The notes: a model not told the origin generated them from the sequence alone. DNA of 64,000 nt from an uncultured archaeon (GCA_964354495.1 CAYHAA010000002.1:80234-144233); one strand, 5' to 3'; positions 25,015 to 61,293 are shown, numbered from the stretch's first letter. A program made the numbers and translations.

Positions 25015-25163
25015 GTCACATCAACCCAAGAGATGCTTGTTAAGAAGGAATACGGATTGATTAGTATATTCCTCGGAGCATGGAACGCCAACATGCCTAG
25101 TGCGACTTGTTTCTGCGGCTGTCTGCAGCCAAGAAGGTAGAATCACTAAACTATTCAGAACGT

Positions 25164-28977: not shown

Positions 28978-29189
28978 CTCTTCTATCTCCCCAAGAAGAC
29001 TTCACATTACTGGAAATCACGAGTATATAATGAAAAGGCACTACAGGGGGACACATCGTGGGGACACGTGCTGTGACCCATACTCTATGCCCATGGTAGA
29101 GTCAAGAATGGAAGCAACTTGTCCTAGAGTCAATAGCAAACTTCATCTGCTTAATACGTACAATCTGCATCGGAAGGGGATAGTCACAA

Positions 29190-29519
29190 TTGAAGACAGA
29201 AGGAGAGAGTGCATGTTCATCAGGACTGCTCATTCTCGTAATGCTTGTCACAGTGACTGGAGCGATTGTCAATTGGCCAAATCCCAATCCCACTGTTGAT
29301 ATTGTCTATGGACCAGAGATTGAAACCTCTGCAGGCTCAGAGATTATCTCGACTCCCATTATTCCCAAGACACTGATTACTATTGCTAACATCACATCCT
29401 TCGATTACTGGCGCAAGTATGAGTTTTCTGCGGGCACTTATTCTATTCAGTCTGAGATCAATATCCCTCTATTGAAAGTGACTGAAATACGAATGGGATT
29501 TTTCTTTTTCTATCATTAA
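29190..29519 (+). CDS. Signal-peptide-bearing N-terminal fragment, probably the 5' part of the downstream glycoprotein gene (see findings)
   Basis: N-terminal hydrophobic signal or anchor LLILVMLVTVTGAIV. The ORF ends inside a TTTTTCTTTTTC run 14 bp before the next ORF, which is in another frame. Confidence 0.35.
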   Translation: MKTEGESACSSGLLILVMLVTVTGAIVNWPNPNPTVDIVYGPEIETSAGSEIISTPIIPKTLITIANITSFDYWRKYEFSAGTYSIQSEINIPLLKVTEIRMGFFFFYH

Positions 29520-29532
29520 CGATACAGCTACG

Positions 29533-30924
29533 GTGACAGCGGCAGCTGAAGATTGGAATTATGGTGAAGCCCATTACATAACCAATTCATCAGCCTTAGG
29601 AATAGGTGCCCATTCGCTCACCCTTGCATTTCCATGGAGTGGTTCTGGCAGTACCTATCATGGATGGGCAGACCAAGTATTTGTCCGGCTTTCAGTGAAA
29701 GATTGTCAAGAGGATTCCGTACAGCTAATCAGATACTGGCTCCAAGTGGCTGTTTCAGAGAGCGTGTGTCCACTCGTAGTGGACATCAGGAGGACAAATG
29801 GCGAGAGCCTTTACTCGAGTCCTTTCATCTATCAAATCTACCAGAGCGAATATGCTCCAAAGGTGGTTCTAGTCTATAATAATTCCTACACAGTGTTCAG
29901 TCCAACTCGTGTCAACGATACTCTCTTAGTCCCTGCTGGAAATCTGTCTGCTAGATTCCAATGGCCCTATCGGGATCTATTGATCCACAACTTCACCACT
30001 CAGACGAATCAATCCATGTTCCTTCGTTTCAGTGCTCAATTCGTGCGTCTCGATGTCGAGTGTAGCCAGCGCATGCCTGAACTCGAAATCAGAGTTGCGT
30101 ACTATTACGGCTCTTGTGAATACGAGCATATTCTCGCCTACTCCTCTCCCTTCTTCTACACTCCGTCTAATAGAACTCTCGTTATCGAAGTTGGATCATT
30201 TGATTCGTCTTTTGAGATTCTTGTTTCAACAGTTCGGGTTCGAACATTCTTGACTGCAGTCAACACGGGTTTCAATAGAAACATGACGCTAGTCATTCAT
30301 CCTAATTGGATTCAGATTGGTAACCTATTGATTCCTCCGGGGAAACTCATGTCACTTCTTTCGTTTGCAATGATAGTTCTGATAGCACCAGTTTACTACA
30401 AGTCAAAGATAGTGAAAAGCAGAGCTTTCATACCCTGGGGTTTTCTGAATCTTAGCCTCATTATCCCCTGGCTAAGCTCGTTTGATGAGTCGCCCTATGT
30501 GGAATCAACTCCAATTATGAACTATATTACCTATCGGACTGGCAGTCCAATCTTTAGTACGATAGTTTACAACAGTGATTCGAATGCCGTCCTCATGGCA
30601 CAATCAGAGAGAGATATTGGGATCGCCATTTTGCTGTGGATGATTATATTTTTGGTCTTCGTTGTGACCACTGGTCAGCTTGAAGGATTTGAATCAAAGA
30701 TGAAAGAAAAAGCTGCGGGATTAGGAATAGTCATTTGTTGTTGCATTGAGTTTCTCTATCTTGCATATCTCTTTCAGACCTACGGCTATATTGGTCTGAC
30801 GCTTGAGATGGGCCCCTTTTTCTCCATAGTGGCTGTCATCTTTTGGCTAATCCATCCTCTAATCATACCGAAGGTATATAGCTCTAAGCCTCAAGTTGAT
30901 TCAATTGAAACTGCCAATGCTTGA
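29533..30924 (+). CDS. Putative surface glycoprotein with C-terminal polytopic membrane region (hypothetical)
   Basis: Starts at GTG with no signal peptide of its own. It has many N-x-S/T sequons (NSS, NNSYT, NDTL, NLSA, NFTT, NQSM, NRTL, NRNMT, NLSL) and hydrophobic helices in the last ~170 aa. Confidence 0.4.
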   Translation: MTAAAEDWNYGEAHYITNSSALGIGAHSLTLAFPWSGSGSTYHGWADQVFVRLSVKDCQEDSVQLIRYWLQVAVSESVCPLVVDIRRTNGESLYSSPFIYQIYQSEYAPKVVLVYNNSYTVFSPTRVNDTLLVPAGNLSARFQWPYRDLLIHNFTTQTNQSMFLRFSAQFVRLDVECSQRMPELEIRVAYYYGSCEYEHILAYSSPFFYTPSNRTLVIEVGSFDSSFEILVSTVRVRTFLTAVNTGFNRNMTLVIHPNWIQIGNLLIPPGKLMSLLSFAMIVLIAPVYYKSKIVKSRAFIPWGFLNLSLIIPWLSSFDESPYVESTPIMNYITYRTGSPIFSTIVYNSDSNAVLMAQSERDIGIAILLWMIIFLVFVVTTGQLEGFESKMKEKAAGLGIVICCCIEFLYLAYLFQTYGYIGLTLEMGPFFSIVAVIFWLIHPLIIPKVYSSKPQVDSIETANA

Positions 30925-30945
30925 ATTGCCTAGAATTCGCAGATT

Positions 30946-38378: not shown

Positions 38379-39308
38379 ATGCGAAATATCCCGTATGTTC
38401 AGACAAGTGTATTTGTGGACGACAAGTATCCCTTTGGTGGGAATCAACTTGCCACCTTCTGGGATGCTACTCTCAACAAGCGACTAACTCTTGAGATGAT
38501 GCAGGGGATTGCGCTTGAGCTCAATTTCTCGGAAACCACATTCCTAGAAGAACCGACAATCAAGGGGTGCGCTTCAAAGATTCGGATCTTCACTCCAGGC
38601 AGCGAACTTGAATTCGCAGGGCATCCAACTTTAGGCTCTTCTTTTGTAATGATGCACAAAGGAATCGTAGCAGCCTCGCAGAAGAGTGCAGTCGTGCAGC
38701 TTGGGATTGGCCCTATTCGTGTTGACTTTCAACCAGATAGTCATGTTAGGATGACACAACCGTCACCCACTTTCTTGGAGGAAGTAGAAGAAGCATCACC
38801 CATTACAAGCGCTCTTGGACTCGACCCCCTGGATGTTTCGGATGCTTTCCCCATACAGGTGGTTTCAACCGGATTTCCATTTCTCATCGTTCCGCTGAAG
38901 AAGCTCTCTGCTGTGCAGAAGGCAGCGCCGAATGCCCAAATGATAATGAATAATCTTAAGGGCTTGCCAAGCTCAGAGGTCCTCATCTTCTCGACTGAAA
39001 CTGTACATCCCAACAATGACGTGCACGCAAGAATGTTCGCGCCCGATGTTGGAGTTCTTGAGGACCCAGCAACAGGAAGTGCTGCAGGACCCTTGGGAGC
39101 ATACCTCGAGAAGTATAATGTTCTAGACAAACATACCTTTGGTGAGTCCATACAGATAGAGCAGGGTTACGAGGTCAGAAGACCCAGCAAATTGACAGTG
39201 AAGGTACCTAGTGAAAAAATGGAAGAGGTATTCGTCTCGGGAAAAGTCAGGCTAGTTGCAGAAGGGACATTGTTCCTTCCGCAAAAGATGTTGCCTCCCT
39301 CCGAATAA
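38379..39308 (+). CDS. PhzF-family isomerase (phenazine biosynthesis PhzF-like)
   Basis: N-terminal block YVQTSVFVDDKYPFGGNQLATF and overall DAP-epimerase-like two-domain length. The start is set at MRNIPYV; the track ORF begins earlier at 38268. Confidence 0.65.
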   Translation: MRNIPYVQTSVFVDDKYPFGGNQLATFWDATLNKRLTLEMMQGIALELNFSETTFLEEPTIKGCASKIRIFTPGSELEFAGHPTLGSSFVMMHKGIVAASQKSAVVQLGIGPIRVDFQPDSHVRMTQPSPTFLEEVEEASPITSALGLDPLDVSDAFPIQVVSTGFPFLIVPLKKLSAVQKAAPNAQMIMNNLKGLPSSEVLIFSTETVHPNNDVHARMFAPDVGVLEDPATGSAAGPLGAYLEKYNVLDKHTFGESIQIEQGYEVRRPSKLTVKVPSEKMEEVFVSGKVRLVAEGTLFLPQKMLPPSE

Positions 39309-39337
39309 CCTTCATATGCTGGTTCACGCTTTTCAAC

Positions 39338-39898
39338 TTGGAGCTGCAAGACTTGACTACACGCAATCCAATCTTTAAGGTAGCATTGATTGGAGAAGGT
39401 GGCGTCGGAAAGACAAGCCTAGCTGTACGTTACACTGAAGACCGATTCGACCAGCAGATGAAAATGACGATTGGTGTGAACTTCGCTACCAAGAGAGTCA
39501 ATGTCGCTGGTACTGACCTGACCCTCCTCATTTGGGACTTGGGCGGACAACCTAGATTCCAAGATGTGGTCATGGACTACTTCAAGGGTTCAAAACTAGG
39601 AATTGCGGTCTACGAGGTTAGCAGGTCTTTCACCATGTACAGGCTCGATAATTGGATTGCAAAGCTTCACAACAGTGTCCCCAACTGCGATATCTTTCTT
39701 GTAGGCAACAAGATCGATGAGCGTCTTCCGGGGATGGGAGTGACAAAAGAAGAGGCTCAGCAATTCGCGGATCAGTACCATGCTCAAGTCTTCGAAGTAT
39801 CAGCAAAGACAGGGGAGGGTGTAAGCCAGATGTTCGAGGCAGCAGGCAAAGTTCTCTCAGAGCGAAGCACTAAAACTAGTTCCGGAGTTGAACACTGA
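39338..39898 (+). CDS. Rab/Ras-like small GTPase
   Basis: G1 GEGGVGKTS, switch-I T in TIGVNF (a RabF1-like IGVxF), G3 WDLGGQ, G4 GNKID and G5 SAKTGEGV. There is no C-terminal Cys prenylation motif. Confidence 0.8.
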   Translation: MELQDLTTRNPIFKVALIGEGGVGKTSLAVRYTEDRFDQQMKMTIGVNFATKRVNVAGTDLTLLIWDLGGQPRFQDVVMDYFKGSKLGIAVYEVSRSFTMYRLDNWIAKLHNSVPNCDIFLVGNKIDERLPGMGVTKEEAQQFADQYHAQVFEVSAKTGEGVSQMFEAAGKVLSERSTKTSSGVEH

Positions 39899-45991: not shown

Positions 45992-46597
45992 TCATCCAAT
46001 GAAGAAGTCGCTCTCCTTCTTCCCCTCAGCCTCGTCCATCAAGCGCAATAGCTCTGTGAAAGCATCTTGGATCCCATCTCCGGTCTTGGCACTGGTTTCG
46101 CGAAAGATAGCGGGAACTCCAAGTTTGTTAATGAAGTACTTAGTGAAGTCCTTGCCCTCCTCAGTTGTCACATACTTGGACTTGTCAAGTGAATACCGCA
46201 GGTCTGTCTTGTTTCCAATAATGACAGTGGGTGGCAATGGACCCATATTCTTGAAAGCCTCAACTAGCCACTTGGAGGCATTCTCGAACGTTGACCGATT
46301 CACTACTGAGTATACCAACAGAATGCCATTGCAGCCCGAATAATAGTGGCCTCTGACTTTCTCGAATGTTGGCTGACCAGCAAGATCCCAAATGATGAAT
46401 TTTACGATATCCTGGTTAAACAAGACCCGCTTTGTCGCCAAGTCAACACCAATCGTAGCAATGTGACCTTCAATGAACTCCTCGCCAAGATAGTTGCGGC
46501 GGATACTAGTTTTGCCAACTGCGCCGTCCCCTATGAGAACTGCCTTCAAAATTATGCTGCCATCATCTTGGTCCTTCACTATACGGTACCCTCGCAT
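45992..46597 (-). CDS. Rab/Ras-like small GTPase (second copy)
   Basis: G1 GDGAVGKTS, switch-I TIGVDL, G3 WDLAGQ, G4 GNKTD and G5 SAKTGDGI, at 201 aa. Confidence 0.8.
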   Translation of the reverse strand: MRGYRIVKDQDDGSIILKAVLIGDGAVGKTSIRRNYLGEEFIEGHIATIGVDLATKRVLFNQDIVKFIIWDLAGQPTFEKVRGHYYSGCNGILLVYSVVNRSTFENASKWLVEAFKNMGPLPPTVIIGNKTDLRYSLDKSKYVTTEEGKDFTKYFINKLGVPAIFRETSAKTGDGIQDAFTELLRLMDEAEGKKESDFFIG

Positions 46598-60119: not shown

Positions 60120-61025
60120 TCAGAAGCCAATCAAGACAAGTACGACTCCGAGAAGTGCTGCCGTGATTCCGATCACTGCGAGTGGAGTCAGGTTCTCTTT
60201 GAGGATTAGTACTGATACGGGTATTGCGAAGAGAGGAGCTGTTGACGAGATGACAGACATAATTGTAGCACCCACTGAAGCGACTGCGGTAACGAAGAGA
60301 AGCGAGCCTACACCCATTCCGAAGAAACCTGCAATACTGACCAAGGCGACAGCCTTGCTTGTTGGCTTTGTCATCCCCTGATGCTTGGCAACCGCAAACA
60401 AAGGGATGAATGCAATGGAGCCAAAGAGTACTCGTACAAGATTGCCGCCGATGGGATCAACGCCTTCAATACCAACCTGCAGAGCAATTATTCCTACTGC
60501 ATATAGGACTGATGTCAGTAAGGCACCAGCAATTCCCCACAGGTCGAACCTACGCGGTGCATCATCGTCCTTTCCTTTTCTATTCTGCTCATTCGACAGT
60601 AGAATAACACCGAGAACAGCAATGATTACTCCAGCAAGTCTTGAGAGGATCGGGGGCTCGCCAAGAAAAACGATGGTGAGAAAGTAAGTGATGATAGGAA
60701 AAGACATAGCAATAGGGAATGCATAAGAAACCCCAATTCGTTCTTGGCTCCAGAGATATACTGTGTCTCCAATCACCGCACCCAATATGGCAGAGGTGGC
60801 CAGAAGGGCTATTGCCACGAGCGGGAGGAATACAGAGTCAATACCAGGCAGGAGAATCACCATGAGAGCCATGAGGGGCAATGCAACCCACATCTTGATC
60901 GAACTTGCAGCAACCGGTCCAATCTCTCTGGCCTGAGAGCGATAGACAACCACTGACAATCCGTAGAGGGCTGTTCCTAGGAGACCTATCAAGCTGCCAA
61001 TAAGAAACTCTGGGGTGACCTGCAT
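60120..61025 (-). CDS. EamA/DMT-family transporter
   Basis: 10-TM protein with the two-repeat EamA architecture. It is paralogous in layout to the 30946-31902 gene. Confidence 0.65.
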   Translation of the reverse strand: MQVTPEFLIGSLIGLLGTALYGLSVVVYRSQAREIGPVAASSIKMWVALPLMALMVILLPGIDSVFLPLVAIALLATSAILGAVIGDTVYLWSQERIGVSYAFPIAMSFPIITYFLTIVFLGEPPILSRLAGVIIAVLGVILLSNEQNRKGKDDDAPRRFDLWGIAGALLTSVLYAVGIIALQVGIEGVDPIGGNLVRVLFGSIAFIPLFAVAKHQGMTKPTSKAVALVSIAGFFGMGVGSLLFVTAVASVGATIMSVISSTAPLFAIPVSVLILKENLTPLAVIGITAALLGVVLVLIGF

Positions 61026-61293
61026 GAAGACCCGCGGGAGGTATCCTACCCTAATATTCTATCGGAAGGACCCAGAGAAGCGGTTGCAGTCACTCTGTTT
61101 GGCGTATGTGATAAAGTACTTATAGAAACTCACAATCCCCGAGCAACAGGTGTTTACGCATGCTCACAGGACTTAAGCGGGACTAACACCCGAGCGCGGA
61201 CTCCTTCTCACTCGGGTCTGACCGAATCCGAGCGAATCTGCTGAGCTAGTCAAACACTAGCATTCTCACCCGCCATCGGGGGAGGTTATACCA

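Follow-up and report, generated by a model that had tools for sequence, protein, structure and literature searches.

The question raised by positions 29190 to 30924 of a 64,000-nucleotide stretch of DNA from an uncultured archaeon (GCA_964354495.1, CAYHAA010000002.1:80234-144233; hereafter the window, in whose full length all coordinates are given) is whether the two consecutive open reading frames (ORFs) found there on the plus strand are two genes or the halves of one membrane glycoprotein gene and, if they are halves, whether the break between them is real and what became of the product. The original prediction, made from the DNA alone, had read them as a single gene of about 575 amino acids (aa) interrupted at a T-rich tract and had offered four explanations for the interruption. 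The single gene was borne out by a continuous orthologue, from which the window differs by one extra T, and by about 27 continuous homologues. Among the four explanations, sequencing error turned out to be unlikely, programmed frameshifting and phase variation gained no support, and a recent pseudogene or loss-of-function allele gave the best fit. We put the probability at roughly 0.8 that a recent and genuine frameshift has inactivated this gene or left it with at most trace function.

Two reading frames form one ancestral gene

The truncated 5' fragment, ORF1 (29190-29519), starts at a TTG at 29190 and encodes 109 aa in frame 0 up to a TAA at 29517-29519, its final five residues ahead of the stop (FFFYH) being out of frame. 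ORF2 (29533-30924) starts at a GTG and encodes 463 aa in frame 1. As had been described, frame 1 is open back to 29482, upstream of the ORF1 stop, and both frames are open from 29482 to 29516. This overlap zone contains the tract GGGATTTTTCTTTTTC (29495-29510), GGGA-T5-C-T5-C in composition, whose two T5 runs lie at 29499-29503 and 29505-29509. ORF1 had been said to stop inside the tract, which is not the case, as its TAA sits 7 nt past the tract end. Removal of one T from the tract yields an open reading frame of 577 aa; the window DNA has one base too many, and the frame is restored either by a 1-nt deletion or by a +1 ribosomal shift.

Comparison with related loci shows directly that ORF1 and ORF2 are two halves of one gene. 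When the conceptually fused protein was compared with 5.8 billion protein clusters, a single cluster matched, the representative of which (P0001) is a continuous protein of 560 aa that is 96% identical to the fused protein over 97% of the query. P0003 (RDE15247.1), the 577-aa form with a TTG start annotated at NCBI for the sister lineage Candidatus Thorarchaeota OWC2, is likewise continuous, and OWC2 thus encodes one protein at this locus and not two. Across the junction the orthologue (P0001/P0003) reads ...RMGFSFSIINDTATV..., and the DNA of the OWC2 gene is 97.6% identical to that of the window gene. The junction DNA alignment contains only one difference, the tract being GGGA-T4-C-T5-C in the intact orthologue and carrying an extra T in the window. 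This lesion lies in the T5 run at 29499-29503, where the contigs L001, L002 and L003 have a single-column gap relative to the window, L005, L006 and L007. The disrupted gene as a whole (29190-30924) is accordingly described as one ancestral coding sequence of 577 codons with a TTG start, split by a 1-nt insertion, in which the ORF2 frame was coding from 29500 on.

The contigs encoding P0001 (L001 and L002) derive from the Joint Genome Institute (JGI) wetland metagenomes 3300012931 and 3300012964, and a pattern scan of the GTDB species genomes located the intact allele in PRDH01000026.1 of Candidatus Thorarchaeota archaeon OWC2. Since L001, L002 and PRDH01000026.1 are mutually 99.97% identical, they represent one lineage, and the window, with about 89% overall identity to it, therefore belongs to a different, related Thorarchaeota species. 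The gene of the OWC2 lineage is intact in four assemblies, namely the two JGI metagenomes, the metagenome-assembled genome (MAG) PRDH01000026.1 and Logan SRR15532676. In the genome and metagenome collections scanned, which do not include the window's own record, a junction pattern that permitted any tract length matched OWC2 alone and brought up no further alleles. The order of genes is common to the window and L001/L002 and consists of an M29 peptidase, an MFS transporter (minus strand), the gene under study, an EamA transporter, a PadR-like gene and a methyltransferase (minus strand).

More distant relatives agree with this picture. A word-indexed protein search with either the fused protein or the family alignment retrieved the P0001 cluster only, and the family emerged when 1.84 billion representatives were searched exhaustively with HMMER, which gave 34 matches, about 27 of them full-length (540-580 aa, 22-34% identity). 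The alignment of these roughly 27 homologues continues without a break from the N-terminus through the final helix, including the junction, where G-x-S-F-S/D-like residues recur. A family hidden Markov model (HMM) from which the close orthologue was excluded matches both halves colinearly, ORF1 at model positions 14-111 and the ORF2 frame at 110-550. Because the orthologue and the distant homologues are continuous across the junction, the intact single gene is ancestral and T5 is the derived state.

The assignment of the start codon rests on similar comparisons. TTG 29190 is preferred because no other start gives the N-terminal hydrophobic segment of about 20 aa that all homologues have. It is located in an island (29176-29208, plus strand) that is conserved between the window and OWC2 amid diverged intergenic DNA and includes a GGGGAT Shine-Dalgarno-like element, which, placed upstream of 29190, probably serves as the ribosome-binding site.

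The extra T is present in separate assemblies

A 1-nt change in a homopolymer belongs to a classic class of sequencing error, and the remainder of the gene appears fully intact, as it would if the genome truly carried T4 and the fifth T had been introduced during sequencing or assembly. The same T5 is present, however, in separate assemblies of three sequencing runs, in Logan contigs of 236 kb (ERR3804374, 100% identity to the window), 2.7 kb (ERR4334727, 99.96%) and 1.9 kb (ERR4334728, 100%), and also in the NCBI record. The exact 463-aa product of ORF2 (P0002) is recorded in NCBI and Logan from five contigs. An artefact of one assembly is thereby excluded as the source of the extra T. A run of four or five T is, moreover, short for a systematic error, and the surrounding sequence argues in the same direction. 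Among the 18 window counterparts of OWC2 genes that were compared, 17 are in single intact ORFs and only this gene is split, and over 19 kb aligned to L001 all other indels are compensated within a few bases or fall outside genes. An intact protein with the diagnostic residues of the window lineage was not found in a collection of 15 billion proteins. We therefore regard an error at this homopolymer as very unlikely, and the T insertion, on evidence at the level of assemblies, is genuine and present in the DNA of the population.

The same set of contigs bears on phase variation, in which the T tract would act as a reversible on/off switch of a surface antigen through slipped-strand mispairing. 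The gene does encode a predicted glycosylated surface protein, its lesion does lie in a repeat-like tract, TTTT(T)C TTTTTC, and off alleles do occur in other lineages of the family. Nevertheless, the assemblies gave no sign of a mixed state within a lineage, as all five contigs of the window lineage carry T5 and all readable OWC2 contigs (L001-L003) carry T4, and the off alleles of other lineages arose not through changes in the tract but through a nonsense substitution and a 4-nt insertion. The homopolymers of established contingency loci usually have at least 7-8 nt, compared to 4-5 nt here. A/T runs of this size are common in the window, with 234 of length 4 and 57 of length 5. A switch of this kind is thus highly improbable.

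Consequences of the insertion for translation

The insertion of a single T into the T4 run, giving T5 at 29499-29503, would shift the frame after codon 104. Ribosomes would then end at the TAA at 29517-29519, inside a predicted beta-sandwich, having translated the signal anchor and no more than about 73 residues of the ectodomain. The remaining 80% of the gene would be left with neither a ribosome-binding signal nor a signal sequence to export the N-terminal ectodomain, and because this 3' portion lacks both, functional protein, and with it the function of the gene, has most likely been lost.

Two ways of retaining a functional product were weighed. The first is a functional split into a short secreted N-terminal peptide and a membrane protein of 463 aa for which translation would begin anew at GTG 29533. 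No Shine-Dalgarno-like sequence is present ahead of this GTG, although termination-reinitiation is conceivable with the codon lying 14 nt past the ORF1 stop. ORF2 itself is undegraded, but, in agreement with its reported lack of a signal peptide, it has no signal to export its N-terminal ectodomain of about 265 aa. Not a single homologue is split at the same position, and the break would cut through a predicted beta-sandwich domain. This is the least probable of the explanations considered.

The second is programmed or tolerated +1 frameshifting, in which tRNA-Phe slips from UUU 29499-29501 to UUU 29500-29502, or does so at the second run, and full-length protein is made. Perfect re-pairing is possible at these two adjacent sites, a slip at the first recreates the exact GFSFSII of the orthologue, and the downstream ORF is undegraded; full-length protein from T5 templates would span ...RMGFSFSIINDT... 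or ...GFFFSII... at the junction. Thorarchaeota OWC bins have been reported to lack dph genes, and the loss of diphthamide raises frameshifting in yeast (PMC6143161), and a lineage without diphthamide biosynthesis might favour slippage, a point noted as background only. The shift is not conserved, however, since OWC2 and all distant homologues are in frame. Furthermore, the frameshifting tied to diphthamide loss is in the -1 direction, the opposite of the +1 shift that this junction requires. The A-site codon UUC is neither slow nor a stop, being the commonest Phe codon in neighbouring genes (37.5 per 1000), and a stop is located five codons downstream of the first slip site. The predicted RNA fold of 29490-29610 was no better than that of shuffled sequences (z-score -0.05), leaving no stimulatory structure. 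The tract is also too short for transcriptional slippage.

Among known recoding systems, the closest is +1 frameshifting of the bacterial prfB type (CUU UGA C), which the junction resembles in that +1 is required and the P-site tRNA could re-pair perfectly. It differs from prfB in having no stop or rare codon in the A-site and neither a Shine-Dalgarno-like element upstream nor a stimulator downstream, and orthologues do not conserve the shifted arrangement. Recoding signals are hence shown to be absent from the junction, and we give programmed or tolerated frameshifting very little chance.

Age of the lesion and constraint on the gene

The locus shares several features with frameshift pseudogenes at short homopolymers in prokaryotes, including a single base inserted into a short run of T, a stop codon that follows prematurely within a few codons, an intact colinear orthologue in a sister lineage and the lack of a compensating change. 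Unlike typical examples, the lesion is very young, and the gene also shows signs of recent exchange between species, as detailed below. Its youth follows from the lack of a second lesion and from the score of the fused product against the family HMM, which at 357.3 bits matches the 359.5 bits of the intact orthologue. The ratio of nonsynonymous to synonymous differences relative to OWC2 is 27:14 in this gene and 158:396 in five neighbouring genes (Fisher P = 2e-6), and the corresponding ratio of nonsynonymous to synonymous divergence (dN/dS) is 0.60 compared to 0.06-0.14 in the neighbouring genes, which fits relaxed constraint.

Several of these observations also weigh against inactivation. 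The broken copy shows no further decay, neither in additional lesions nor in the HMM score just given, and the high dN/dS could instead stem from rapid evolution of a surface protein or from the short time since divergence. Over the 560 aa in common with P0001 there are 20 aa differences, and polarising them by the family alignment showed no bias toward the window copy at conserved columns (41 versus 53 matches). Perfect re-pairing of tRNA-Phe at UUU_UUC in the +1 frame could yield a trace of full-length protein. Finally, the three runs with T5, whose accessions gave no match in a literature search, may share a site or study, and a minor intact allele may exist in the population.

Low divergence from the OWC2 lineage

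The gene stands out from its surroundings by its low divergence from OWC2. A block at 29229-30930 (plus strand) that coincides with the coding sequence contains 0-3 differences per 50 nt, compared to 7-13 outside. Identity is 97.6% in the gene but 78-94% in the flanks, and the intergenic flanks are diverged. Synonymous divergence (dS) is 0.035 in this gene and 0.23-0.57 in the five flanking genes, about 10-fold lower. The simplest reading of these alignments, and the one that the pattern suggests, is that the two Thorarchaeota species recently exchanged this single gene.

Two other origins of the block were considered and rejected. There are no flanking direct or inverted repeats that would point to a mobile element. 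An assembly chimera was dismissed because both boundaries are contained, at 99.96% identity, in the 2.7-kb contig, which was assembled from a different run; the OWC2 side of the block is replicated in three assemblies.

Protein family and predicted structure

Several properties of the product had been described correctly from the DNA. The proposed signal peptide of ORF1 corresponds to a hydrophobic segment at aa 7-31 (29208-29282, plus strand; Kyte-Doolittle maximum of 2.28 in a 19-residue window), a signal peptide or signal anchor with an equivalent in all full-length homologues. It is followed by a predicted extracellular region of about 350 aa (fused aa 32-382, 29283-30336) with beta-sandwich domains. 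At least nine N-x-S/T sequons had been claimed for ORF2 and ten were counted. The fused ectodomain likewise has ten, compared to 3.2 +/- 1.6 in shuffled versions (P about 0.0005), several of them within conserved motifs such as NDT, NxNIT and NVS. With this enrichment of sequons in a predicted exported domain, the protein would qualify as an archaeal N-glycoprotein. The C-terminal block of membrane helices was also confirmed, hydrophobic helices extending from aa 383 to 564 of the fused protein. These include a transmembrane helix directly after the ectodomain (aa 383-404, 30337-30402) and a predicted four-helix membrane module (aa 413-558, 30427-30864), all on the plus strand.

The family appears, from the sequences collected so far, to be confined to Thorarchaeota and related Asgard archaea, all named members being annotated as 'hypothetical protein' of Candidatus Thorarchaeota or Promethearchaeota. 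Pfam scans of the full proteins returned nothing meaningful, the six C-terminal domains submitted to Pfam had no match at E <= 10, and a search of PDB sequences with the family profile returned nothing.

AlphaFold2 run on a 28-sequence alignment gave a confident model (predicted local distance difference test score (pLDDT) 82.9, predicted template modelling score (pTM) 0.79), which replaced a single-sequence AlphaFold model of P0001 that was discarded (pLDDT 37.7). In the predicted layout a signal anchor is followed by glycosylated beta-sandwich ectodomains and five C-terminal membrane helices. In the topology modelled for the membrane module, a short helix leads into four strands, followed by a helix and a long helix, then by one strand and the last helix, which we take to be the claudin arrangement. 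The predicted model thus has the beta-sheet in loop 1 (four strands), joined by a strand of loop 2, that characterizes the eukaryotic Claudin/PMP22/TARP-gamma tetraspan fold. Loop 1 lacks conserved cysteines of the W-LW-C-C type and conserves only an invariant Pro, usually followed by Trp. In contrast to claudins, the module shows no sequence similarity to Pfam PMP22_Claudin or Claudin_2 and is preceded in the same polypeptide by a large ectodomain and one additional helix. The likeness is therefore a resemblance of the predicted model at the level of the fold and not membership in the family. A literature search combining claudin and Asgard produced coincidental matches only. The ectodomains of the model resemble the beta-sandwiches of the carbohydrate-binding modules (CBMs) CBM22, CBM61, CBM16 and CBM4, at a sequence identity of only 8-13%, without identified ligand-binding residues and in a fold that is very widespread.

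Lesions in other family members

Other members of the family also carry disrupted genes. In Logan SRR31656001 (L008, 43-1767), a Gln153-to-TAA nonsense codon, presumably a change from CAA to TAA judging from the intact protein, is the sole difference from an intact protein of 574 aa that is found in two further runs of that accession series, SRR31656008 and SRR31655995. In ENA ATLA15-1 SAMN03981646 (L009, 2254-3328), a 4-nt insertion after codon 78 causes a frameshift, and its removal restores 355/357 identities. This contig is also without the tandem 585-aa paralogue present in L010-L012. In those contigs (L010, 4113-7728; L011; L012) two tandem paralogues of 585 aa and 575 aa, 28% identical to each other, are flanked on one side by an S8 peptidase gene and on the other, past one small intervening gene, by a GT87 glycosyltransferase gene. 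Only one family copy, the broken one, is present in the window. A further contig (L013, 1-1250), compared with L014 (7462-8166), keeps only the last ~127 codons of a family member, joined to unrelated DNA with a HEAT-repeat gene, which could reflect a deletion or rearrangement or, the contig being 1.25 kb long, an artefact in the form of an assembly chimera. Together with the extra T of the window, the nonsense codon and the 4-nt insertion make up three lesion types in three lineages, a pattern that may point to recurrent inactivation.

Neighbouring gene content

OWC2 carries about 2.5 kb (L001, 3367-5908) that are absent from the window at 25135-25147 and include a gene for a 737-aa molybdopterin oxidoreductase; the two lineages therefore differ in gene content at this position. 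The window encodes a second EamA-family transporter at 60123-61058 (minus strand), 45% identical to the one adjoining the broken gene, as well as a second Arf/Ras-like small GTPase at 45995-46597 (minus strand), 34% identical to that at 39215-39895. The two small GTPases fit an Asgard origin.

Implications

For annotation, the two ORFs are best given as one frameshift-disrupted, Thorarchaeota-specific membrane glycoprotein gene. The locus further illustrates that a homopolymer frameshift in a MAG can be tested without reads, by seeking the same allele in separate assemblies. While the lesion is an ordinary mutation, the affected gene is less ordinary, as it belongs to an uncharacterised family without a Pfam or PDB sequence match, whose predicted structure has ectodomains resembling sugar-binding domains next to a claudin-like membrane module. 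Repeated inactivation seems to have struck the family in wild populations, and the two lineages compared here have apparently exchanged the gene across species in recent time.

One tentative explanation, which we consider possible but doubtful, is that this family of Asgard surface glycoproteins is under antagonistic selection, for instance as a receptor for viruses or in cell contact, with disabling alleles becoming dominant repeatedly and alleles being swapped between species. It is put forward because of the three independent lesion types (the extra T, the nonsense codon of L008 and the 4-nt insertion of L009), the absence of the paralogue from L009 and the 10-fold lower dS. If true, the presence of a claudin-like fold in Asgard archaea would also be relevant to how the membrane-contact proteins of eukaryotes arose.
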